Assembly (NCBI RefSeq): GCF_963921235.1
Contig: NC_086097.1
Location: 41,790,001 to 41,854,000 of the forward strand
Direction of reading: 5' to 3'
DNA length: 64,000 nucleotides
Origin: Mobula hypostoma
Taxonomy: Eukaryota
Below the pieces are notes generated by a model that was not told where the DNA came from, searched no databases, and worked only from the letters and a program-made list of their open reading frames with translations. Below are positions 1,409-63,330 of the stretch, piece after piece. Each line of letters begins with the position of its first letter. The first letter of the stretch is position 1. The position numbers and the translations under genes are program-made.

Positions 1409-1660
1409 TAAACACAGAGACACAAAAGCAGCAAATAATCTGCTGGAGGAACTCAGTGGGTTGATCAGCATCTCTGGGGGTAAAGAAATTACTGATATTT
1501 GGATTGAAACTCTACAACAAGACATAGACACACAGGAGACTGAAGATACTAGAATCAGGAGTGAAAAAAAAGCAAATGCTGGAGGACGTTAAGTCGACTG
1601 TTCCTTTCCCTCCACAGGTGCTGCCTGACCCCTGAGTTCCTCCAGCGGTTTGTTCCTCAT
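1409..1660. mobile_element. Degenerate Penelope pseudo-LTR-derived remnant (inverted halves)
   Basis: 'ctgctggaggaactcag' on one side and 'gtcgactgtt...tgctgcctgacccctgagttcctccagc' on the other. Both resemble the terminal repeat at 16880-16945. Confidence 0.5.
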
Positions 1661-3319: not shown

Positions 3320-3440
3320 AAACTGAAGAGGATGTCAATCTGAAATAAAAACGAGAAGGGATTTCAACCTGAAACATCACCACTGTTTCTCTTTCACATA
3401 GCTACTACTGGCCTACTGCATGTTTCCAGCAGGTTCTGAA
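3320..3440 (+). mobile_element. Degenerate Penelope pseudo-LTR with decayed hammerhead core
   Basis: 'gagaagggatttcaacctgaaacatc...tactggcctactgcatgtttccagc' is similar to 16855-16930. Confidence 0.45.
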
Positions 3441-12857: not shown

Positions 12858-14396
12858 CAGTATATTCAGATGTTTTCCATTTATTAATCTACCTGACTTG
12901 AAGTTTCCATATGGGTCAAGATATTTCAAGTCATTCTGAAACTTGTAGCTTTGAATAGTTCATCCCTTTTGTAGACATACAGGACTCCTGTTCTTATGTG
13001 CTGAATAGAGGATGTGGTAAATGTGGTGGATTACTTTGCTGTGGAATGAGCATGGTACAATTTTTTCAAACCTTAAGGGGAACTTAACTTAAGAGGAAGT
13101 GGGGAGCAGATGTTCTTTTGGTAAGGTTGGGAGAGCAAGTGGACTTCAGCAAGAAAGGTCAAGAGGCAATATCTAGTCTAAGTAAAATGTGAACTTTGAA
13201 TTGATTGCATGCATGCAATTGAATAGAGTGTGCAGATTTTGACAGTTATCTTAGAGCAAGTGGAACCACAGATAGAACCCAAATAAATTATTACAGCAAA
13301 TAAACTTTCACTCTTCATGATCTTTCATGTGAGCAGCCCATTTTATTTTGACTTTTAAGCAAATCTCTTCTTTATATTCCATTGAAAGAAATACAGAAAG
13401 GTTATGAAGGTGAAAATTGGCTCCTTATCATTTGATGGGCTTTACCAGAACAATTGGATCTTTATTTCAAGTTAAAAAATCTGAAAATTGCTGTCAGTAA
13501 GCAGGATGTGCTAGAATGCAGAAGCTAGCCTGGATAAGAAGCTGCAGGATGCTGCAGGAGTGGAAATACATCTTTATATACAAAAGGCATTTGGCTACAA
13601 AACTGAAGGTTAAAAGAGCAGTGCTCAAACTGGAGTCACTCAGACTGCGACAGGGATGAGTACAGGGGAGCTCGGTCATTTCCAATCTACATTTATGATT
13701 TGATCTTAGAAATTGAAAGTACAATTTAAAAATTTGTAAATAACAACAACTCTTCTGAGTATTGAGCCTAAACAAAAAATGCCATTAAACCCCCATTCTG
13801 CAAATTTGTTCGTTGATACGTTTATTTACAGTACCTATCTATGCACCGCATACGAGGTGGGGCAATTCTGGAGAAAGGGTCCAGAGAACACAGAGTGCTA
13901 GCTAAACCTGCTGAGCGGGTTTGAGAAAGAGTGGTCACACGTCATTAAAAATGATTATACAAAATTCTATGTTGTAGAAGACTAATATTGAGTCCTGTGC
14001 AAAACAGCAAGCATGTTGCCTCAGCTGAGTCGATATGCTTAGAAAACAAAGCTGGTATACATTATTCTCTGCAAACTGGAAGATGGAGGAAAACGCGGAG
14101 GCAAAACGCTTTGTCCTCAGTAAGGCAGAGGCAGAACGTTCTGTCCTCAGTAAGGCGGGGGAAGAACGCTTTGTCCTCAATAAGGGCCTCACCTTTGTCC
14201 CCCTTCGCCCACACCTCAGCGAGTTCCGTGTTCACCATGATGGGGAACTCTTCTTCCGCTGTCTCCATCTCCGAGCCTACTTCTTCGGCAAAGACTCATA
14301 CACCCCCACCGATGACCCCTTCTCCCGTCTACAACCCTCCTCCTCTTCATGGACACCCCGCTCTGGTCTTCTGTCTGCTCTGGATCTCTTTATCCG

Positions 14397-16552
14397 GAGG
14401 CAGAATGCTCTGTCCTCAGTGAGGGCCTCACCTTTGTCCCCCTTCGCCCACACCTCAGCGAGTTCCGTGTTCGCCATGATGGGGAACTCTTCTTCCGCTG
14501 TCTCCGTCTCCAAGCCTACTTCTTCGGCAAGGACTCATCCACCCCCACCAATGACCCCTTTCTCCCGTCTTCAACCCTCCTCTTCTTCATGGACACCCCG
14601 CTCTGGTCTTCTGCCTGCTCTGGATCTCTTTATCGCTAACTGCCGACGGGACATCAACCGTCTTGACTTCATCGCACCTTGTTCCCATTCCAACCTCACT
14701 CCTTCGGAATGCTCTGCTCTCCAATCCCTCCGCACTAATCCTAACCTTATTATTAAACCCACCGATTAGGGGGGTGCTGTTGTAGTCTGGCGTACTGACC
14801 TCTACCTTGCCGAGGCACAGCGACAACTCGCGGATACCTCCTCTTATTTACCCCTCGATCGTGACCCCACTAAGGAGCACCAGGCCATTGTCTCCCACAC
14901 CATCACTGACTTTATCCGCTCAGGGGATCTCCCATCCATTGCTACCAACCTTATAGTTCCCACACTCCGCACTTCCCATTTCGACCTCCTACCCAAGATC
15001 CACAAACCTGCCTGTCCTGGCCGACCTATTGTCTCAGCTTGCTCCTGCCCCACCGAACTCGTTTCTGCATACCTCGACACGGTTTTATCCCCCCCTTGTT
15101 CAATCCCTTCCTACCTATGTTCGTGACACTTCTCACACTCTTAAACTTTTCAATGATTTTAAGTTCCCTGGCCCCCACCGCTTTATTTTCACTATGGATA
15201 TCCAGTCCCTATATACTTCCATCCCCCATCAGGAAGGTCTCAAAGCTCTCCGTTTCTTTTTGGATTCCAGACCCAATCAGTTCCCCTCTACCACCACTCT
15301 GCTCCGTCTAGCAGAATTAGTCCTTACTCTTAACAATTTCTCCTTTGGCTCCTCCCACTTCCTCCAAACTAAAGGTGTAGCTATGGGCACCCATATGGGT
15401 CCTAGCTATGCCTGCCTTTTTGTTGGCTTTGTGGAACAATCTATGTTCCGTGCCTATTCTGGTATTTGTCCCCCACTTTTCCTTCGCTACATCGACGACT
15501 GCATTGGCGCTGCTTCCTGCATGCATGCTGAGCTCGTTGACTTTATTAACTTTGCCTCCAACTTTCACCCTGCCCTCAAGTTTACCTGGTCCATTTCCGA
15601 CACCTCCCTCCCCTTTCTAGATCTTTCTGTCTCTGTCTCTGGAGACAGCTTATCCACTGATGTCTACTATAAGCCTACTGACTCTCACAGCTATTTGGAC
15701 TATTCCTCTTCTCACCCTGTCTCTTGCAAAAACACCATCCCCTTCTCGCAATTCCTCCGTCTCCGCTGCATCTGCTCTCAGGATGAGGCTTTTCATTCCA
15801 GGACAAGGGAGATGTCCTCCTGTTTTAAAGAAAGGGGCTTCCCTTCCTCCACTATCAACTCTGCTCTCAAATGCATCTCCCCCATTTCACGCACATCTGC
15901 TCTCACTCCATCCTCCCGCCACCCCACTAGGAATAGGGTTCCCCTGGTCCTCACCTACCACCCCACCAGCCTCTGGGTCCAACATATTATTCTCCGTAAC
16001 TTCCGCCACCTCCAACAGGATCCCACCACTAAGCACATCTTTCCCTCCCCCCCCTCTGCTTTCTGCAGGGATCGCTCCCTATGCAACTCCCTTGTCCATT
16101 CGTCCCCCCCATCCCTCCCCACTGATCTCCCTCCTGGTGCTTTTCCTTGTAAGCGGAACAAGTGCTACACATGCCCTTACACTTCCTCCCTTACCACCAT
16201 TCAGGGCCCCAGACAGTCCTTCCAGGTGAGGCGACACTTCACCTGTGAGTCGGCTGGGGTGATGTACTGCGTCCGGTGCTCTCGATGTGGCCTTCTATAT
16301 ATTGGCGAGACCCGACGCAGACTGGGAGACCACTTTGCTGAACACCTACGCTCTGTCCGCCAGAGAAAGCAGGATCTCCCAGTGGCCACACATTTTAATT
16401 CCACATCCCATTCCCATTCTGACATGTCTATCCATGGCCTCCTCTACTGTAAAGACAAAGCCACACTCAGGTTGGAGGAACAACACCTTATATTCCGTCT
16501 GGGTAGCCTCCAACCTGATGGCATGAACATCGACTTCTCTAACTTCCGCTAA
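14397..16552 (+). pseudogene. Penelope-type reverse transcriptase / GIY-YIG endonuclease, disrupted
   Basis: RT motifs MDIQSLYT, GVAMGT.MGP.YA and RYIDD; Cys linker CKRNKCYTC; VMYCVRCSRCGLLYIGET..EH..H. There is a premature TAG at 14767-14769 (in xDKGG), a frameshift at the C-run near 15090 and probably others near the 5' end. Confidence 0.9.
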
Positions 16553-16848
16553 TGCCCCACCTCCCCCTCGTACCCCATCCGTTATTTATTTTTATACACA
16601 CATTCTTTCTCTCACTCTCCTTTTTCTCCCTCTGTCCCTCTGAATATACCCCTTGCCCATCCTCTGGGTCCCCCCCCCCACCTTGTCTTTCTTCCCGGAC
16701 CTCCTGTCCCATGATCCTCTCGTATCCCCTTTGCCAATCACCTGTCCAGCTCTTGGCTCCATCCCTCCCCCTCCTGTCTTCTCCTATCATTTTGGATCTC
16801 CCCCTCCCCCTCCCACGTTCAAATCTCTTACTAGCTCTTCCTTCAGTT

Positions 16849-16884
16849 AGTCCTGACGAAGGGTCTCGGCCTGAAACGTTGACT
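16849..16884 (+). ncRNA. Minimal type I hammerhead ribozyme motif
   Basis: AGTC-CTGACGA-AGGGTCTCGGCCT-GAAA-CGTT-GACT: stem I AGTC/GACT, both core boxes, a stem II hairpin and a palindromic ACGT stem III. Confidence 0.85.
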
Positions 16885-17084
16885 GTACCTCTTCCTAGAG
16901 ATGCTGCCTGGCCTGCTGCGTTCACCAGCAACTTTGATGTGTGTTGTTAGATGGAGGAGAAAGTTGGCTGATATTTTTCAGAAAATGAAAGGGGTTCATA
17001 GGAAAAGCTTTGAATTCTGGGTAGTCCAAAACTAAATGTGCTAAGTATAAAATCAGGGCTAACAAATCAGATCGGTAATGCCAA

Positions 17085-17268
17085 CACAAAATGCTGGAGG
17101 AATTCAGCAGGCCAGGCAGAATCTATGGAAAAGAGTGAACAGTCAACATTTCAGACCAAGACTCTTCATCAGAACTGGAGAAACAAAGATGAGAAGTCAG
17201 AGCTAACTTTCATCCAGCATTGTGTGTGTGTTGTTTGGATTTCTAGCATCTGTAGATTTTCTCTTGTA
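17085..17268 (-). mobile_element. ORF-less Penelope pseudo-LTR mini-element with decayed hammerhead (17141-17176, minus)
   Basis: The minus strand reads AGTT-CTGATGA-AGAGTCTTGGTCT-GAAA-TGTT-GACT. Flanks are ggtaatgccaa (17074-17084) and ggtaataccaa (17269-17279). Confidence 0.75.
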
Positions 17269-18200: not shown

Positions 18201-19417
18201 GTTTCCATCATATTCCCTCTCAGATTTTGCTGTCTGATGGTATATTATTCATGATTTTCAGTTTTTCCACAGGACTCTAATAATGCTTCACATCAAAATC
18301 ATATTATGAAATTACTTTTTGCACCCTGTCTATAGCTTGCGTGTGTGGTGCCCAGAATGTAACACAGTACTGCAGCTTTGACTGATAGTACAATAACAAG
18401 AACAATCGGGGCAAAGGATGAGAAACGTCTGCTAACAGAATTGGATAAAAAGCATGAAAGGCAGCTTTTACACACACTTGGAGTCAACAATTGACTTTTA
18501 CAGGGTAATATAAAGGTCATTACAGGGACATTTTTGCATTATAATACAGGAGATGGAACAGAAAAGGGATTGGCAGAAAGACTTTGGGGAATGCAGGTGG
18601 GAAAGAGAAGAAAGGAAAAAAAGTTGAACAAATTAAAGGAAAGAATAATATATAAAAAGAAAGAGGAAAGAAGTAGCAGAAAGCCCAACCGGACAGAAGG
18701 TTAACAGAATGTTAAGGTAAGAATTGCAATGGGAACTGAGGATGAGACGAGAGGTAGTGATTAATGGAAGAGGGGGAAGAAGGAGGGCAAGAGAAGTGGG
18801 GAGAAGGCAAGAGGCAAGCCACAACTAAGATAGAGAGGATAACGGAAAAGAAATTACAGAGAAATGACACACAGAAAATTCAGGAGGAACTCAGAGGCCA
18901 CACAACATTAATGGAAAAGAGGAAACAGTACATTTGTGCTGCAAAGTAACACTATAGCTATGCTAGCCATCTTGCTTGTCAATACTAATCTCAATTTCCT
19001 GTATTCATTCCACATCCCTCTATGCCTTGCTTACTCTATTCCCTGTTAGGGTGCCTCTTAACTGTTGTTACTGTTTCTGTATCCACCACTTCCTCTGGCA
19101 GCTCATTTCAGATACCAACTACTCCTTGTGTGAATGATCTACCCCTTGGATTTCATTTTACCCTCAGATCTCCTGGAGACAAGAAGAGAATGGCGGAGGA
19201 GGAGAGAAGGGGTGAAGTGAAGACTGAAGGTTTAGTGAAGAAGAAGGAACGATTTAGTAAAAAGAGGGTGGACAATTAGAAGTAAATTCATGCGAAACAG
19301 TGAGAGGATGGTAAGAGAATAATTTTGACAGGGTGGAGGCTTTTATCAAAGTTAATGTGAATGCATCATCTGTAGGGAAAATCATGGTGTGTTTATTTTT
19401 GGTAAGTAGAATGACAT

Positions 19418-20292
19418 GGGGAGTCAAGTTAGGAAAAGGGGAAGTACAACGAGATCTAGGTGTTCTTGTACATCAGTCACTGAAAGCAAGTCTGCAGGTA
19501 CAGCAGGAAGTGAAGAAAGCTAATGGCATACTGGCCTTCATAACAAGGGGGATTGAGTACAGGAGCAAAGAGGTCCTTCTGCAGCTGTACAGGGCCCTGG
19601 TAAGACCACACCTGGAGTATTGTGTAAACACAAAATAATGATGAAGGGTTCCGGCCCGAAACGTCGACTGATCTTTTCCACGGATGCTGCCTGACCTACT
19701 GAGTTCCTCCAGCGTGTTGTGAGTGTTGCTGGAGTATTGTGTGCAGTTTTGGTCTCCAAATTTGAGGAAGGACATTCTTGCCATTGAGGGAGTGCAGCGT
19801 AGCTTCACAAGGTTAATTCCCGGGATGGCAGGACTGCCATATGTTGAAAGATTGGAGCGACTGGGCTTGTATACACTGGAATTTAGAAGGATGAGAGGGG
19901 ATCTGATTGAAACATATAACATTATTAAGGGATTGGACACGCTGGAGGCAGGAAGCATGTTCCTGCTGATGGAGGAGTCCGGAACCATAGGCCACAGTTT
20001 AAGAATAAGGGGTAGACCATTTAGAACGGAGTTGAAGAAAAACTTTTTCACCCAGAGAGTGGTGGATATGTGGAATGCTCTGCCTCAGAAGGCTGTGGAG
20101 GCCAAGTCTCTGGATGCTTTCAAGAAAGAGATGGATAGAGCTCTTAAAGATAGCGGAATCAAAGGTTATGGGGATAAGTCAGGAACTGGATACTGATTGT
20201 GGATGGTCAGCCATGATCACAGCGAATGGCGTGCTGGCTTGAAGGGCCAAATGGCCTACTCCTGCACCTATTGTCTATTGTCTATTGTCTAT
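19418..20292 (+). mobile_element. Young 5'-truncated CR1 LINE interrupted by a mini-element
   Basis: ORFs 19333-19638 and 19723-20196 are the same-frame CR1 RT C-terminus. The sequence is very similar to 38420-39165 and ends in a (TATTGTC)n tail. Confidence 0.92.
19626..19728 (+). mobile_element. 103-bp hammerhead-bearing Penelope-derived insertion
   Basis: Perfect 14-bp TSD CTGGAGTATTGTGT at 19612-19625 and 19729-19742. Contains TGATGA-AGGGTTCCGGCCC-GAAA-CGTC-GACT. Confidence 0.9.
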
Positions 20293-24570: not shown

Positions 24571-25914
24571 TCTTGAAAACTGAAGAGTTGTTTTGAAGGG
24601 GATTCATATTCACAGGCATCAGCAAATTAGGAAATTACTCACCTTCAGAAGAGCAGACACTCAGAATAAAAAGGTAATTCAGGTGACCCAAGAGAAACGC
24701 TCACAGAAAGAGCAGCTTGGTGAATTAAACTGTCATTAAATTCTCCCTACCCATGAAGAAAACTGAGGACAACAATCAACTGGCTTTCATGTTCAGATTA
24801 AAGCCAATAAACATCAACCTGAACAGATGGCCAGGAAATTTTATGATTTTGATTTAGCTAAAGCCAATATGGTAAGGCCTGACCATGAGGATCCACATTT
24901 GTCCTGTCCCAGCACTTTCAATATTGGTAATAAAGCTGACATCATCAAATTACTGTAATTTGCAAAAAGAACTGTAGAATTGAGCATAGAAAAATCAATA
25001 GTCAAATATAAAAACTCAACCATAGTAATACTAGTGGGGTTTCATTTGCATTCATGGAGAATGAAAGTCAGGAATCATTACCTTCCTCCCTGACACATCT
25101 GTGTAGTTATGAAAAGCTGCTGCAAAATGTTAGCTGCCATTTTTCAGACGGGGCATCACATGAAAGTCACTTGCTGTGTCAGGTCACCCAAAGGAGACCA
25201 ATAAAGTTGCCCTTTACTTACCTCTTAAATACTACTTCTATAACAAACCTGATTACATTGACATTTTCATTTTGCTATTTGTGAGATCTTACTTTATGTA
25301 AATTGGCTGCTATAAATCTTAACTCACAGAATAATTGTACTTCTAAAACAATTAATTGACTGCAAATCACTTGAGACATACTGAAGGAGATATTAAAGGG
25401 ATTATTTACAGTTGTCCACAGCAAGTTTAACATAGTGAGGATGAGCTATAGTTTCCATTTACTTTGAGTCACAGCGTTCCTTTATTTGCCAGCCTCAATG
25501 TAAATTTGAACCAAGTCTGATTACATACCTTGGCTCCTTTCTAGATGGGCAACTCTCCAGGTAAAAACAGAGGTCATGAATGAGTCAGAAGCCAGTGGAG
25601 CTAATGATAACAGGAGGGTACATTCTGGACTTGGGTGCGTATAAGGGTGGCTATACAAATGTGATGCAAGAATAGAGATCTACCCTGAGGTGATGGTTAA
25701 AGATCCAGAAGAGACTGATCAGTGACCCTGATGAGGAGAAACATGTTAGTTGAAAGTTCAGAATGCCTGGAGCACCATATGTGCTGGAGAAGTACAGTAC
25801 TTACTGGCTCCATTCAGATGCCATTTATCTGTGCTTCCTCCTTTAAGACTTAGCCAGGGTTGAAGGCTGGAAGACAGATAAAATATGAGGCATCCAGCAC
25901 TTTATCATTTAAAT

Positions 25915-26112
25915 CAGCGGTCCCCAACCTCCGGGCCGCAGACTGGTACTGGGCCGCGAAGCATGCAGGGGTGCAGTGGTAGCCGAAACGCACCCAGCAT
26001 GTCTTTAAGAAAAAAGCCGAAATTTTGGCTTTTTTCTTAAAGATGTGCTGGATGGGTTCCGGCTACCGCTGCACCCCCGCATGCTTCGCGGCCCGGAGTT
26101 TGGGGACCACTG
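25915..26112. mobile_element. Palindromic hAT (Charlie-like) MITE
   Basis: 8-bp TSD ATTTAAAT at 25907-25914 and 26113-26120. TIRs CAGCGGTCCCCAA / TTGGGGACCACTG. The body is almost fully self-complementary. Confidence 0.92.
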
Positions 26113-26282
26113 ATTTAAATGACCAACCAAACTTTCATAGACCACGCACCATCTCACCTGCATTGAAGCTAGAAGTGGGTAAGTTGGAGGTATGCTGTTG
26201 TTGGGATTTAGGTTTCTAAAAGGTATGCATCCCACCTGATCCAAACACTTTTGTGGAGATATTTCAGCATGTGTAGGTAGCA

Positions 26283-26480
26283 AATGCCAGAAACACTCAG
26301 CAGCTCAGGTAGACTTTGTGTAGAGAAAAACAGTTCACATTTTAGATCGAAAACTCTTCTTTAATTTTGATGAAGGTTCATCAACCTTTAACATTTAGTC
26401 TATTTTCTTCTCTCTCCAGATGAAGCCTGATGTGTTTAGTATTACTACATTCTCTTTTTTTAAATTTGTTCTCAGGTGTC
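26283..26480. mobile_element. Old inverted Penelope pseudo-LTR remnant
   Basis: 'aaatgccagaaacactcagcag...' followed by 'ttgatgaaggttcatcaacctttaacat', a decayed hammerhead core. Confidence 0.5.
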
Positions 26481-27239: not shown

Positions 27240-30200
27240 TTACATTAAATGAAAATATTGAATAAAAGATCTCCAGGTCTGTTCAAATTTAAGTGAGGAA
27301 TCATAAAGATTACTTATAATTTTCTCCAAATTCAAGCATAATATCGTCTGAGAAAACCAAAAAAAGGTGGTTGGAGCATTAAGCTCTTTCCAATGTTGTA
27401 AGATACATCTTTTCTCTGCCACAGCAAACTGTTGAGGCCGGTTCATTGGCTATGTTTAAGAGGGAGTTAGATATGGCCCTTGTGGCTACAGGGGTCAGGG
27501 GGTATGGAGGGAAGGCTGGGGCGGGGTTCTGAGTTGGATGATCAGCCATGATCATAATAAATGGCGGTGCAGGCTTGAAGGGCCGAATGGCCTACTCCTG
27601 CACCTATTTTCTATGTTCTATGTCTATGTCTATGTTTTCGCCATTAAAGTAAGAAATGCAATCATTCTACGGGCTGAAGGAGAAAGATTACTGGAAATTT
27701 TAGGTAGTCCAAAGATAGCAGTAATAGGGTGAGGAGAGATAGCTATATTCAATACCTTTGAGATAATATTAAAAATGTCTCTCCAAAAGTTTCCAGAGTA
27801 GGACAAGACCAAAACATATGAGTTAAAGAGGCTATCTGCCCCGGACATCTATCACAAAAAGGATTAATATGAGAATAAAAGCGAGCTAATTTATCTTTGG
27901 ACATATGTGCTCTATGAACAACTTTAAATTGAATTAGGGAATGTTTAGCACAGATAGAGGAAGTATTGACTAATTGTAAGATCTGCCCCCAGTCATCCAC
28001 GGAAATGATAGAACCCAATTCCTGTTCCCAATCTACCCTAATCTTATCAAATGGAACTTTCTTAAGTTTCATAATAATATTATAAGTCATAGCCGATGTA
28101 CCTTTCTGACATGGATTAAGGTTAATTATAGTATCTAAAATGTATGTAGGAGGAAGCATTGGAAAGGAAGAAAGTATAGTACTTAGGAAATTTCTAACTT
28201 GTAGATATCTAAAAAAATGTATTCTTGATAAATTATATTTGTTAGATAATTGTTCAAAAGACATAAGGGAACCATCTAAAAATAAATCCGAAAATCGTGA
28301 AATACCCTTAGTCTTCCAAATTTGAAAAGCACGATCTGTAAAAGAGGGAGGAAAAAATATGTTACCTAAGATAGCCCAAATTGGTTAAGATCAAAAAATT
28401 TTCTGAATTGAAACCAAATACGTAAGGTATATTTAACTATCGGGTTAGATACCTGTTTGAGGTGTTTCAAATCAAAAGGAAGAGAGGAACCTAAAATAGA
28501 GCCAAGTGTATAGCCCTGAACAGATTGTAATTCCAATGCTACCCATTTGGGAATGGATAGTATATCCTGGTCAAGTAACCAAAATTTCATATGTCGAATA
28601 TTAATTGCCCAATAATATAATCTAAAGTTAGGTAATGCTAAACCTCCATCTCTCTTAGATTTCTGTAAATGTATTTTACCCAGTCTCGGGTTTTTATTTT
28701 GCCAAATAAATGAAGAAATTTTTGAGTCAACTTTATCAAAAAAAGATTTTGGAACAAAAATCAGTAATGCCTGAAATATATATAAAAATTTTGGCAGAAA
28801 AAACATCTTAACTGCATTAATACTACCAATCAAAGTTAAATATAAAGGAAACCATTTAGATGAAAGTTGAATAATATGGTCAATTAAGGGTAAAAAGTTA
28901 ATCTTAAATAAATCTTTGTGTTTACAAGTAATTTTAATCCCAAGATATGAAAAATAATTATTAATCAATTTAAACAGAAAGTTATGACATAAGGGAAGTT
29001 GTTTATTAACCGGGAAAAGTTCACTCTTACTAAGATTTAATTTATAACCTGAAGAGAAACTAAATTGTGCTAATAACTCTAAAACAGCAGGGATGGATTT
29101 TTGAGGATTAGAAATATATAAAAGTAAGTCATCAGCATAGAGTGATATTTTATGGGACTTTAAGCCCCGAGTTATCCCAGTAATATTTGGAGATTCTCGA
29201 ATGGCAATTGCAAGAGGTTCTAATGCAATATCAAATAATAAAGGACTAAGAGGACAACCTTGTTGAGTACCTCGAAAAAGAGGGAAAAAAGGTGAGCTTA
29301 AAGAGTTAGTACGGACCGAGCCCACAGGAGAATGATATAACAGTTTGATCCAGGATATAAATTTCGAGCTGAAATTAAACATTTCAAGCACCTTAAATAA
29401 GTAAGGCCATTCTACTCTATCAAAAGCTTTCTCAGCATCTAAAGAGATAACACACTCAGGAACATTTTGTGAGGGTGTATAAACAATATTTAACAGTGTG
29501 CGAATGTTATAAAAAGAGTAACGACCTTTAATAAAACCCGTTTGGTCTTCCGAAATAATAAAAGGAAGTACTCTTTCTAATCTGTTTGCTAATAACTTAG
29601 AAAAAATTTTAGAATCAACATTTAATAAAGATATTGGTCTATCAGATGCACATTGAGCAGGATCTTTATCCTTCTTTAATATTAGAGAGATTGACACTCT
29701 ATTGAAAGATTCGGGAAGTTTACCAAGTTTTAATGAAGCCTCGAAAACCCTACAGAACCAAGGGATTAATGAAGGTGCAAAACATTTACAAAATTCTGCG
29801 GTAAACCCATCAGGGCCAGGAGCTTTCCCCAGATTCATAGAGGAAATAACATTCTTAATCTCATCAGTGGTAATTGGAGTATCTAGCATAGAAGACATAT
29901 CCTGTGAAATCTCAGGGAAGTCTAGGTTATCTAAAAAATCATTCATATATTTAGAGTCTCGAGAAGACTCTGATTGATGTAAGGAAGAATAAAAATCAAA
30001 GAAGGTTTGATTAATCCCCGCATGATCAAGTATCAGTCGATCATTTTGATTATAAATCTGATTCATTTGAGATTTAGCATAATTAGACTTCAATTGGTTA
30101 GCCAACAGATTGCCAATTTTGTCACTGTGTACATAAAATTCACTTCTCGTTTTCCTTAATTGGTTTACAATCGAGGACGAAAGTAATAAACTGTGTTCCA

Positions 30201-31219
30201 TTTGAAGTTCAGTTCTTTGTTTATATAACTCCTCAGAGGGAGCTGTAACATATTTCTTATCAATTTCCTTAATCTTATCCACAATTACCAACTCCTCCTG
30301 CTTCAGCTTCTTCCTCAAAGCAGCAGAATACAAGATAACCTGACCACGAATATAAGCTTTAAAAGTATCCCAAAGAATGTTCACAGAAATATCCTCTGTA
30401 TAGTTGATTGTAAAAAAAAGATCAATCTGTTCATTCATAAATTTAACAAAGTCCGAATCCTGAAGCAACAGCGAATTAAAACGCCATTGTCTATTATTTT
30501 GTGTATTGGCCTGAATTTTAATAGAAAGCTTAAGTGAAGCATGATCCAAAATGGTTATAGAGTCATAATCACATTTAATCACTGAAGAAATAAGATGAGA
30601 GTCAATAAAGAAATAATCAATTCTTGAATAGGAATGGTGAACATGTGAAAAAAAAGAAAAATCTTTTTCCTGAGGATGCAAAAAACGCCAAATGTCCGTC
30701 GACCCAGAATCAGAGAGGAATGAATTAATCAAAGTTGCAGATTTATTAGGTAAGGTCCGTAGAGGAGCCGAACGGTCCAAAGCTGGAGACAAGCAGGTAT
30801 TAAGATCTCCGCCCCAGATCATTCAAATTCGGGAACTGATTGAATAATGATTTATAAAATTCCAGATAGTCCATATTGGGAGCATAAACATTAACCAAAA
30901 CTACCTTTTTATTAAATAGTAGACCACTACCCAGTAGAAATCTACCATTCGGATCAGAGATAATATCATGTTGTATAAAAGTAACTGAGGAGTCTATAAA
31001 AATAGAGACGCCTCGAATCTTAGCATTAGAGCTCGAATGAAACTGTTGTTCCTTCCAGAATTTAAAAAAACGTAATTTGTCCCCCCTCCGCACATGGGTC
31101 TCTTGTAAAAATAGAATTTGTGCTTTAAGTCTCCGGAACACTTTAAAAACTTTTTTCCTTTTAATAGGATGGTTAAGACCATTAGTATTCCAGGAGACAA
31201 AATTAATAATAGACTCCAT
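27240..31219 (-). pseudogene. L1 ORF2 (APE endonuclease, RT, C-terminal Cys-rich domain), frameshifted
   Basis: SWNTNGL, LQETH, GGDLN, SRIDYFF, SLDAEKAFD, QGCPLSP, YADD, C..C....H.FW.C. It is split over several frames and interrupted by a CR1 insertion. Confidence 0.93.
27415..27634 (+). mobile_element. CR1 3' end inserted into L1 ORF2
   Basis: CR1 tail with (CTATGT)n. It splits 'LTLMAK|RCIL', with TTTTC repeated on both sides. Confidence 0.85.
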
Positions 31220-32769: not shown

Positions 32770-33878
32770 AGCAGACCTTAAAAACATCCGATTATCGAAG
32801 AGCCCAATTTGTTTCAAAGTATTGTAAAAGTCGATGCCTTAATGGTTAGTTAAAATATAGCTGATCATAAGAAAAAAACTCAGAGGTAATGGAGCAAGTC
32901 AAGAACACGACTTCACTCCATGAGCTCTACCGGAAGTCCCGAGAGTGAACTGTCAGGGAAGGTTTCTATATAGTAAATTGCTTTAATACAAATGCAATAC
33001 ACAAAAGAGAAATGCTTAAAAGCACGTTCATTATATGCATGAAAAGGAAAACTTAGCAATTATGAGGAAACAGCCTGTGAATGTGATTAATTGGATGATT
33101 CCTTCAAAGATCTGGACAAGGTGCAATGTAATGAATCCTCTTCTCCATATTCAGGATGGATACAAATGGAAGACTGAGCACAAACCCCGAATCCTTGGTT
33201 TCAGTCTGTTGATGTTATTTTACATAATATGCTTGCCTGAAATACTCTTATGGAGATGAAAGACCAAAGCAAATTGATCTGGACAGGAGTAATTTCAAAC
33301 AACAATTAACTGGCCCTACATTTGGGTTTGGGACACTGGCAACTAATGAAAGGATTTTAAGCCTGGCAAGCAGGATTACAGAGATTCCCAACGCATTTCA
33401 GGTAGAGCAAGAGAGCAGATTGGAAAAGGGTGGTTCGTTTCAAAGACAATAGAGGGAGGTTATGTATGGAGTCAGAGGAAGTAAATGAAGCCCTCAGTTA
33501 GTACTTCACATCATTACCGACCATGGAGAAGGACATTGATGATGATGAGATTAAGGAGGATGAGTTGAGATTCTGGGCCATGTTGATATTAAGGGTGGAG
33601 GCATCACGTGTATTGAGAAACATTAAGGAGAAAACTCGCAAGTACCTGCTGGTATCTAGCTCAGTACACTGAGGAAGGTGAAAGAGGAGATTACTGTGGA
33701 TCCCCATTTCTCTACCTATAGGTTAGGCACTGGAAGACTGGAAAATAACCAATGTTATTTCTTTGTTTAAGAAGGTTAACAAAGGTATTCTCCTGAATAT
33801 CCTCTGAACCTTCTCCAATGTCAACATATGTTCTTTTAGTGAAGGGATCCAAAACTGTTAACAATACTGTAGTATCAT

Positions 33879-34393
33879 AAACACAAAAAAACCTGCAGAT
33901 GCTGAAAATTCAAGCAACACACACAAAATGCTGGTGGAATGCAGCAGGCCAGGCAGCATCAATAGGAAGAAGTACAGTTGACGTTTCGGGTTGAGACCCT
34001 TCGTCAGGACTAACGGAAAAAAGAGATAGCAAGAGATTTGAAAGTGGGAGGGGGAGGGGGAGACCCGAAATGATAGGAAAAGACAGGAGGGGGAGGGACG
34101 AAGCTAAGAGCTGGGAAGTTGATTGGCAAAAGGGATAAAAGGCTGGAGAATGGGGAGTATCATAGGACAGATGGCCTTAGAAAAAAAGAAAACGGGAGGG
34201 GAGCATCAGAGGAAGATGGAGAACAGGCAAGGAGTTATTGTGAGAAAAAAAGAGAGAAGAGGAAGAAAAAAATAAATAAATAGGAGGGATGGGGTAAGAA
34301 GGGGAGGAGGGGCATTAACGGAAGTTAGAGAAATTAATGTTCATGCCATCAGGTTGGAGGCTACTGAGACAGAATATAAGGTGTTGTTCCTCC
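33879..34393 (-). mobile_element. Penelope-like element 3' fragment (end of endonuclease plus pseudo-LTR)
   Basis: Reverse complement of 16474-16945, plus the extra terminal segment 'gcatctgcagg'. Confidence 0.88.
33976..34011 (-). ncRNA. Minimal type I hammerhead ribozyme motif
   Basis: The minus strand reads AGTC-CTGACGA-AGGGT-CTCA-ACCC-GAAA-CGTC-AACT. Confidence 0.8.
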
Positions 34394-35165
34394 AGTACTC
34401 TATTGCAGTCTGACCAATGCCTTATAAAGTCTCAGCATTACATCCTTGCTGTTGTATTCTAGAACTCTTGAAATGAATGCTAAAATTGCATTTGTCTTCC
34501 TTACCACTGACTAAGTATGCAGGTCAACATTCAGGGAATCCTCCACAATTAAACTCAAGTCATTTTGCACCTCTGGTTTTGAATTTTCTCACCTTAGAGC
34601 AAATAATCTAGTTTTTATTTCTTCTGCCCGAGTGCTTGCCCATACACTTCCCAAGATTGTATTCCATCTGCCACCTCTTTGCTCATTCTCCTAATCTGTC
34701 TAAGTCCTTCTGCTGACACCCTGCTTCCTTTGCACTTCCTGTCCCTCTGCCTATCTTCATATTGTCTGTAAAGTTGGCCTCAAAGTCATCAATTCCATCA
34801 TCCAAATCATTGAAATATAACCTAAAAAGAAGCAATCCCAACACTGACCCCTGCAGAATGCAAAAGTTTCCCATTATTCCCACTTTTTGCCTCTAGCCAG
34901 TCAGCTGAACTTCTGTTTTTTCTGTTGTTTTCAGAAGTAGTTGATTTTAAAACCGGTCAGGACCAGCCTGCAACACATACTTTCAAGGTCAGCAGAAGTG
35001 CAGCAAGTGAAAGGAATTAGTCAATTTATCAGCCAATATAAGCAAAGTTGCTTTAGGGGAGCAGCCTTGTGAGAAAAGTGCAAGTCTTTGGCTCGAGAGT
35101 CTTCGGCAAGGAGGCTGAGGGAGGAGACTACGCCACAGTTGGAGAGGGTGAGAGGTGGTGAAGAA

Positions 35166-57959: not shown

Positions 57960-60100
57960 GCTCACATTGTCAATCAAACCCCTCCCCATACTCCTATCAC
58001 CAACCAGTTTACAATCCTCAGTCCTATGTCCCTAGTGAGTTCCGCACCCGCCATGATGGTGAGTTCTTCTTCCGTTGCCTTCATCTCCATCCCTGCTTCA
58101 TTGGCAGCCCACTCTGATGATCCCTTCTTCCAGATTCAACCCTCCTCCTCTTCCCGGACAGCTTGCTCTGGTCATCTGCCTTTTCTGGATCTTTTTATCA
58201 ATAATTGCCCACAAGACATCAATCACCTCAGCTGTAAAACTGCTCTCTCCAATTCTAACCTCACTCCCTCTGAATGCACTGCTCTCCACACTAATCCCAA
58301 CTTCTCCATCAAACTGGCAGATAAGGTGGGGGGAGGGTGCTGTAGTAGCCTGGCTAACTGACTGCTACCTTGCTGAGGCCCAGCAACAATTCTCAGACAC
58401 CTCCTCTTACTTACCCCTTGAAAAGGACCCCACTAATGAGCACCAGGCCATTGTCTTCTGCACCATCATCGACCTGAATGACCCTGGGGTCTTCCATTCA
58501 TTGCATCTTAGTTGCATTTTTTCCAGCATCCCGTACCTGTTTCTACCTCCTACCCAAGATCTATAAAACCACCTGTTCAGGTCGCCCCATTGTTTCTGCT
58601 TGTTCCTGCCGCACTGAACTTGTGTCTGTATACCTCATCTCTGTTTTATTCCTCCCCACCCCCCCCCCGCCCTGTTTCAATCCTTTACTACCTACATCCA
58701 TGACAGTTCACACGCTCTTGATATTTTCTTGGCCCTGATTGTCTCATTTTCACTATGGACACCCAGTCCCTATACACCTCCATCCCCCATCAGGAAGACT
58801 TTAAAACTCTCACTTCTTTCTAGACAACAGACCCAACCAATTCCCCTCCACCACCACTCTCCTCCATCTGGTGGAACTGGTCCTCACTCTCAATACTTCC
58901 TCTTCGGCTCCTCCCACTTCCTTCAAAGCAAAGGTGTAGCCATGGATACTTGCGTGGATCCCAGTTATGCCTGCATTTTTTTCGGCTACGTGAAGCAGTC
59001 CATGTTCCAAGCCTACAGCAGCATGTCCTCAACTCTTCCTACACTAGATTGATAACTGCATTGGTAATGCTTCCTGCACCTATGCTGAGCTCATCGACTT
59101 CATCAATTTTGCCCCCAGCTTCAACACTGACCTCAAATTTACTTGATCCATTTCCAATACCTCCTTCCCCTTTCTTGATCTATCTGTCACTGTCTCTGTA
59201 AACAGTCTATCTACTGATATTTTTTATAACCCCACTGACTTTCACAACTTCTGGATTATACCTCTTCTCATCCTGTTACCTGATAAATCTCATCCCTTTC
59301 TCTCAGTCCCCCCTTCTCCACTGCATCTTCTCTCAGAATGAGGCTTTTCATTCCAGAATAACTGAGACATCCTCCTTCTTCAAAGAAAGCAGTTTCCCTT
59401 CCTTCACCATCATCGCTGCCATCACCCGCATCTCTTCATTTTTAACGCACATCTGCCCTCGACCCATTCTCCGGCCGCCTCACCAGAGAGAGGGTTCTTC
59501 TTGTCTTCACCTACACATCCAGCACATAATTCTCCATAACTTCTCCCATCTCCAATGGGATTCCACCACCAAACACATCTTTCCCTCCCCCCAACTACCT
59601 GCTTTCTGCAGGAATCAAACCCTACACAACTCCTTTGTCCACTTGTCACACCTTGTTGATCTCCTTCCTGGTACTTCTCCTTGCAAGCGGAACAAGTGCT
59701 ACACCTGCCCTTACAACTGCTCCCTCACTACCACTCAGGGCCCCAAACAGTCCTTCCAGGTGAGGCAACACTTCACCTGTGAGTCTGTTGGGGGTCATCT
59801 ATAGTATTCAGTGCTCCCGATGTGGCCTGTTGTATATCGATGAGACCCGAGATAGATTGGGAAACTGCTTTGCTGAGCACCTTTTCTCCATCTGTCAGAA
59901 AAAGCAGGATCTCCTGGTGGCCACCAATTTCAATTCTACTCCCCATTCCCTTTCTGACATATCAGTCCATGGCCTCCTCTTCTGCTGCAATGAGGCCACA
60001 CTCAGGTTGGAGGAGCAACATCTTATATTCTGTCTGGGTAGCCTCCAACCTGCTGGCGTGAACATCGATTTCTCAAACTTCTAGTAATCGTCCCACCCAT
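57960..60100 (+). mobile_element. Older, heavily mutated Penelope-like element (RT plus GIY-YIG), pseudo-LTR missing
   Basis: Collinear with 14450-16555: LADKVG, YLLPKIYK, GRPIVS, GVAMDT, 'VIYSIQCSRCGLLYIDET', 'EEQHLIF'. Confidence 0.9.
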
Positions 60101-63189: not shown

Positions 63190-63330
63190 TGAGAGCAGAA
63201 GAAGAGTTAATATTTCAGGTTGAAAATCCTTCACCAAAACTAGGGAAGAGAGAAAACAAATTAGTTCTAAGTTGCAGGTAGGGTGGGTGAGGGATAGATG
63301 AATAAGACAAAAGGAATACTTCAGATATAT
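63190..63330 (-). mobile_element. Old Penelope pseudo-LTR remnant
   Basis: The minus strand reads 'agttttggtgaaggattttcaacctgaaatattaact', a decayed hammerhead-like module. Confidence 0.45.

Follow-up and report, generated by a model that had tools for sequence, protein, structure and literature searches.

A predicted minimal hammerhead motif in a Neptune-type Penelope-like element of the ray Mobula hypostoma

At a locus of Mobula hypostoma, a hammerhead-like motif follows the reading frame of a reverse transcriptase (RT). It bears on what the hammerhead ribozymes of Penelope-like elements (PLEs) do, a question that this one locus does not decide. We analyzed the motif, the element that carries it and the related copies in a stretch of 64,000 nucleotides of contig NC_086097.1, referred to here as the window.

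Anatomy and identity of the motif

The motif occupies 36 bases on the plus strand (16849-16884) and consists, in order, of a 4-nt strand of stem I, CUGACGA, AGGGUCUCGGCCU, GAAA, CGUU and the second, complementary strand of stem I. It begins 296 nt downstream of a TAA stop codon (16550-16552). An earlier note had given these letters, which were exact on re-reading, at about 300 nt after the stop, and had listed two catalytic boxes, a 4-bp stem I and a stem III reduced to palindromic ACGU, all of which are present. The short stem II that it reported exists as well, with 4 bp, but pairing starts at a G that follows an unpaired extra A. The cleavage bond predicted after U16880 agrees with the descriptor geometry, which places it between U16880 and G16881.

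The two boxes alone discriminate weakly, with 12 matches in the window versus 7.9 +/- 2.7 expected (9 of 100 shuffles reach 12). The full descriptor combines the boxes with a stem II of at least 3 bp, a palindromic 15.2-16.2, UH, and a stem I of at least 4 bp. It matches one site in the 64-kb window, the focal motif, and none in 600 dinucleotide shuffles, so that the focal motif is not explained by chance. Relaxing the descriptor to a 3-bp stem I produced one match in the shuffles.

The focal copy contains CUGANGA, GAAA, U16.1 and an H at position 17 (here U), and its helices I and II, of 4 bp each, are free of mismatches. With the A after CUGANGA left unpaired, helix II pairs in the copies at 33977 and 19638, for which this is the sole possible register; in the focal copy, it is favored over the alternative (-6.0 versus -4.6 kcal/mol). 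The palindromic ACGU lies at 16876-16879, and there is no loop 3.

Folding energy of the 36-mer is no better than for shuffles (z -0.12). The lowest-energy fold of the monomer retains helices I and II, but the core pairs with the palindrome, which is an inactive form, and the lowest-energy folds of the homodimer differ from a double hammerhead. The homodimer result fits the low activity and the requirement for helpers reported in PMC4209133. The Rfam check suggested in the earlier note came out negative, with no hammerhead family among 5 and 2 covariance model matches at E-values up to 10, and exact-pattern scans of metagenome contigs and of viral contigs found 0 loci each.

Judged by its letters and predicted pairing, the 36-base segment is a genuine copy of the minimal type I hammerhead motif known from PLEs. 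The earlier note was right about this identity, but overlooked the decay at the G10.1-C11.1 pair and at C17, and also that the kind, with fish Neptune elements among its carriers, was already published in 2014. Cervera and De la Pena (2014, PMC4209133) reported minimal hammerheads (min-HHRs) in the pseudo-LTRs (pLTRs) of metazoan PLEs, including Xena, Poseidon and Neptune of fishes, with an extra nucleotide, a G10.1-C11.1 pair (highly conserved, not invariant) and the palindrome among their traits. The focal motif shares with them the core boxes, the 4-bp helix I, the unpaired nucleotide between 9 and 10.1, the palindromic 15.2-16.2 and the missing loop 3. As in that set, where copies are mostly solitary, it sits alone on a truncated element. 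Opposite-strand pairs 100-700 bp apart are described in the same paper, and here two cores are separated by 258 nt. The focal copy departs from the min-HHRs by its G-U at 10.1-11.1, its U17 and the lack of an upstream pLTR; its helix II has 4 bp, versus 7-8 bp in the Schistosoma min-HHR, and its host is a ray. Shark, skate, Callorhinchus and Leucoraja gave 0 matches in supplement file 2 of PMC4209133, and our literature search found no paper describing the present ray family. The focal motif adds a cartilaginous-fish example to the kind published in 2014, in the form of a decaying relic.

Table 1. Parts of the focal motif and its host element, and related insertions (window coordinates)
Feature	Position	Strand	Evidence or remark
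Helix I, 5' strand	16849..16852	+	Sequence and descriptor; AG within is a candidate splice acceptor
Core box C3-A9 (16853-16859) and unpaired extra A (16860)	16853..16860	+	Descriptor, copy comparison
Helix II, 4 bp, with 4-nt loop	16861..16872	+	First pair G-U in focal copy, G-C in family
G12-A13-A14, palindromic ACGU (16876-16879), N17 = U16880	16873..16880	+	Predicted cut 16880/16881
Helix I, 3' strand	16881..16884	+	Sequence and descriptor
Target-site duplication, left, 10 bp	14081..14090	+	Exact match to 16949-16958
Target-site duplication, right, 10 bp	16949..16958	+	Pairs with 14081-14090
Truncated 5' end	14091..14394	+	Short restarts and 239-nt ORF duplicate (14156-14394, 93% to 14395-14634); self-BLAST, tblastn
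Broken RT / Zn-linker / GIY-YIG ORF, Neptune-type PLE	14395..16552	+	N-terminus missing
3' non-coding stretch, 296 nt	16553..16848	+	79% pyrimidine, three AG dinucleotides only
Element downstream of cut, to short 3' end	16885..16948	+	Other copies carry a further 30-40 nt tail
Small insertion, related subfamily	17084..17267	.	Minus-strand decayed motif (core 17142-17172) head-to-head with plus-strand long-tail piece; 11-bp duplication, 1 mismatch
Small sister insertion	19627..19728	+	Inverted tail of 12 nt, motif truncated at C3, short end; exact duplication of 14 bp
Sister 3' fragment	33880..34394	-	Motif core 33977-34007, helix I closing pair broken, long tail
Older decayed family ends	1426-1523 (-), 3355-3438, 18865-18936 (-), 26280-26359 (-), 63197-63259 (-)		

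The host element and its clade

The focal element spans 14091-16948 between its 10-bp duplications, and an equally good 10-bp match was found in 2 of 5000 random 50-nt windows. The 5' junction (14091) falls inside the ORF, and neither an upstream pLTR nor an inverted tail was found in the 5' end (14091-14394). This segment shows several nested restarts near one ORF position in addition to the duplicate, which could reflect template jumping or later duplication.

The locus was searched for the two pLTRs of a full PLE, but direct repeats flanking the ORF are absent and there is no upstream motif-bearing copy. The earlier note had placed the motif in a 3' pseudo-LTR. This is apt in so far as the motif lies in the terminal region, which would be the pLTR of a would-be tandem copy, but the focal copy lacks the upstream repeat. 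Within the terminal non-coding region, the motif is located 66-68 nt before the 3' junction.

Damage to the ORF includes an in-frame stop (14767-14769) and changes of frame around 14550 and 15100. In the frame 14957-16552, an RT with YIDD is followed by a CX4CX2C linker and a GIY-YIG-type end, with weak Pfam matches for the focal ORF (RVT_1, E-value 1e-5, below the cut-off; GIY-YIG, E-value 0.082). The linker is found at residue 398 of protein P0001, and 96 of 121 collected proteins fit the pattern of linker and GIY-YIG. The nearest named proteins are from Mobula (87-92% identical) and Hypanus (78-89%), followed by sharks (62-70%). According to PMC8557442, a CX2-5CxxC linker lies between RT and endonuclease in Neptune and Nematis and is absent in Poseidon, and Li et al. 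(bioRxiv 10.64898/2026.07.22.740005) report only Neptune and Poseidon among the vertebrates sampled. From the encoded order of RT, CX4CX2C linker and GIY-YIG, which matches the Neptune/Nematis definition, the focal element is classified as a Neptune-type PLE. The earlier note had reached the same assignment; of the two clades with the linker, Neptune is the one present in the vertebrate sampling of Li et al.

Non-LTR retrozymes (PMC7229834, Cervera and De la Pena 2020; Li et al. 2026) also contain a type I motif, and are derived from or moved by PLEs; Li et al. report them in the one chondrichthyan sampled. While retrozymes consist of tandemly repeated non-coding units, the focal locus has one motif, joined to an RT-endonuclease ORF, and no tandem non-coding units were found there.

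A second, older element, 74% alike, is present at 58034-60097; it ends a few bases past the stop, without 3' region or motif. Pieces of the element are also contained in the ray or shark gene models P0002, P0005, P0016 and P0122, with P0016 and P0122 translating through the motif region. These four models are probably annotation chimeras.

Family copies and the cut site

About ten motif-bearing family pieces are found in the 64-kb window. Relative to the family, the focal copy has two CpG-type changes, C11.1 to U and C17 to U. The 10.1-11.1 pair is G-U in the focal copy and in the copy at 17142, and G-C in 2 of the 4 copies. We also used assembled contigs from four sequencing runs, in which C replaces U16880 in 94, 93, 61 and 71% of the contig depth (among the rows listed). 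Position 16872 lies outside these rows and was read from the loose-end consensus (at 17136, from two runs), which has C at both 11.1 and 17. The earlier statement that sister copies have GUC applies to 33977 and 19638, two of the three further well-preserved copies in the window, and to most of the contig depth in all four runs, but the copy at 17142 has GUU. As both family cytosines precede a G, CpG decay would be a simple cause of both changes.

Core-over-flank conservation, a check suggested in the earlier note, was analyzed for the window copies. Across ten of them, core bases differ from the column majority in 11 of 85 cases, compared to 125 of 500 in the tail (p 0.018). The four best-kept copies show the contrast (0 of 43 versus 36 of 223, Fisher p 0.002), whereas the six older ones do not (11 of 42 versus 89 of 277, p 0.48). 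Because the four copies that carry the signal were originally picked by motif pattern, which biases toward a conserved core, the conservation is suggestive only. Such a pattern would be expected if parents were selected and inserted copies decayed. In all 4 copies folded, the tail is no more stable than its shuffles (z -0.24 to 1.03), which gives no sign of a second structured RNA there.

The predicted cut is not where the copies end. The earlier note had proposed that cleavage defines the RNA ends of the element. In fact, all 10 window copies that cover the cut site begin upstream and continue across it, and the 3' end of the focal copy lies 66-68 nt past the predicted cut. Contig depth is high up to 16947 and then drops more than thousandfold, with loose ends at 16946 that run into further tail. 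Most 3' ends of window copies are found at about +57 to +70 or at +99 to +104 from the cut; two old pieces lose alignment earlier (+12, +38), and two alignments extend into the flank (+76, +91). The 5' starts are at -23 or further upstream in 8 of 10 copies, and at -1 and -3 in two old copies, which cannot be told apart from a start at the cut itself. Since all ten copies run across the cut, their templates had either been left uncut or been re-joined. Cleavage does not set the 3' end of the copied template, which fits the internal priming on uncut RNA proposed in PMC11167929. The ribozyme may have a role in making an RNA 5' end or a circle.

A similar geometry is described for PAc, a Poseidon element of Anolis carolinensis (Frangieh et al. 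2024, PMC11167929), with the motif upstream of the 3' ends, two end positions 30-40 nt apart, and copies that span the cut site. PAc belongs to another clade, without Zn linker by PMC8557442, and its ORF starts in stem II; the window contains no full-length copy of the ray family for comparison.

Three insertions (17084-17267, 19627-19728 and 1523-1653) join inverted and forward pieces of the element end, one end being long-tail and one short. Two of the three have duplications (11 and 14 bp), and no target-site duplication was found for 1523-1653, nor for 33880-34394. The three seem to record priming on both DNA strands. For PLE insertions, PMC8557442 describes this pattern of tails and inversions, and PMC11167929 explains it by two internal start sites; both DNA strands are extendable in PAc, which fits the small inverted-plus-forward insertions in the window. 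The ray family is useful for asking what PLE hammerheads do, being very abundant and having small insertions in which both priming sites are preserved, as are 5' stop points around the cut.

Two family insertions (19612-19742 and, on the minus strand, 33835-34440) occupy nearly the same position within copies of a LINE-like repeat, which we take to be CR1. The two cases could reflect a target preference.

Possible roles of the motif

The focal motif is probably a copy from a high-copy Neptune-type family of rays, in which motifs cut each other as dimers while priming takes place downstream, on uncut or re-joined RNA, and the focal copy would be a passenger of that family. In active parents, the motif would sit in the terminal region, which becomes the pseudo-LTR when copies are arranged in tandem. 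A single motif would be off for want of a stable helix III. Two motifs would pair through ACGU, possibly aided by the protein of the element, and each would cut the other after C17, as suggested by published work (for hammerhead dimer cleavage, see Lunse et al., as cited in PMC6765202). Reverse transcription would begin 60-100 nt downstream of the cut, and such priming on uncut or re-joined RNA would account for DNA copies that carry the whole motif. The focal copy would have arrived by one insertion, truncated at its 5' end and flanked by a 10-bp duplication, and would have lost two CpG cytosines (11.1 and 17).

The focal copy is most likely a passenger that would cleave little or not at all, in view of its dead ORF, its two decay changes and the lack of a partner. 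No intact same-strand dimer partner was found in the 64-kb window, where the plus-strand copy at 19638 lacks C3 and helix I, and the copies at 17142 and 33977 are on the minus strand and damaged. Loss of the G10.1-C11.1 pair costs more activity than the GUU change. Some activity of the focal copy is still conceivable, as GUU is a cleavable triplet, although GUC and AUC are best (PMC3138052, PMC9217987). It is scarcely credible, however, that the focal copy acts as a ribozyme within a host or read-through transcript, for instance when paired in trans with another family copy. Such activity would agree with the focal copy alone in the window fitting the whole descriptor, with G-U and GUU being tolerated changes, and with the great abundance of the family in four sequencing runs, but the missing partner argues against it, as do the two changes, both being CpG-type decay away from the family state.

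The geometry of the copies also bears on a different proposal, that the cut yields unit-length RNAs with both ends made by cleavage, which are circularized and then copied, so that the ribozyme defines RNA ends even though DNA copies span the site. A cut-and-circularize route was proposed for PLEs in PMC4209133, circular RNA would likewise give cDNA spanning the joint, and the two old fragments starting at -1 and -3 would suit it. We consider it unlikely, given the more distant starts of the other 8 of 10 window copies, the anole element, in which ribozyme core mutants left insertion unchanged and no RNA-seq reads ended at the site (PMC11167929), and the lack of cleavage for 8 of 9 Xenopus dimers in Li et al. 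Alternatively, cleavage may be vestigial or absent, and the family may retain the motif for protein binding, promoter function or splicing. Minimal motifs are weakly active in vitro, with other functions possible (PMC4209133), Naiad elements thrive without the motif (PMC8557442), and in the ray family a pyrimidine tract and AG overlap helix I. This is nonetheless very improbable, as all 11 catalytic positions are kept in the best copies together with helix II pairing and the palindrome, and the anole motif does cleave with the protein that it needs, an activity abolished in C3/G8 mutants (PMC11167929).

The sequence before the motif raises one more possibility, quite unlikely in our estimation, namely that a retained intron consists of, or ends with, the pyrimidine-rich stretch that follows the ORF stop. 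Its acceptor AG would make up the outer half of helix I, and splicing would shorten or replace helix I and thereby switch the ribozyme. In Drosophila virilis Penelope, as described in PMC4209133, the intron terminates where helix I begins on its 5' side, and here the pyrimidine tract and AG overlap the corresponding strand; the D. virilis motif has a 2-bp helix I, a bulged 6-bp helix II, a small helix III and a known intron, whereas in the ray family an intron is only suspected. In each of the three copies examined, pyrimidines make up 73-80% of the 30 nt before helix I, and two sequencing runs have loose ends at 16849 that are pyrimidine tracts too; the ORF strand itself is 64% pyrimidine. 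A joint from 16547 to 16852 was seen in one contig of run X4, among 15 listed of 605 joints; it is one base off a clean acceptor and ambiguous, and does not count in favor of an intron. Of 21 candidates in a protein search with a frame through the motif, one matched, P0122; this Mobula gene model begins within the motif and continues through the long tail, and is uninformative on splicing. If true, the overlap of intron and ribozyme would extend to a second clade and to vertebrates, which would suggest an ancient control common to PLE RNAs that a high-copy family makes testable.

Two observations were made on the same region. The segment 16553-16850 is an AG-poor pyrimidine tract that ends in two close AGs at helix I, 16845-16846 and 16849-16850, and the Hypanus gene model P0002 departs from the ORF where its stop codon lies, as if a donor were there.

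Elsewhere in the window, an 818-codon open frame on the minus strand (28366-30822; RVT_1, E-value 6.5e-37) belongs to a different, better-kept retroelement, and a near-perfect inverted repeat at 25905-26122 (35-nt outer arms 94%, 72-nt inner arms 89%) resembles a small non-autonomous DNA transposon.
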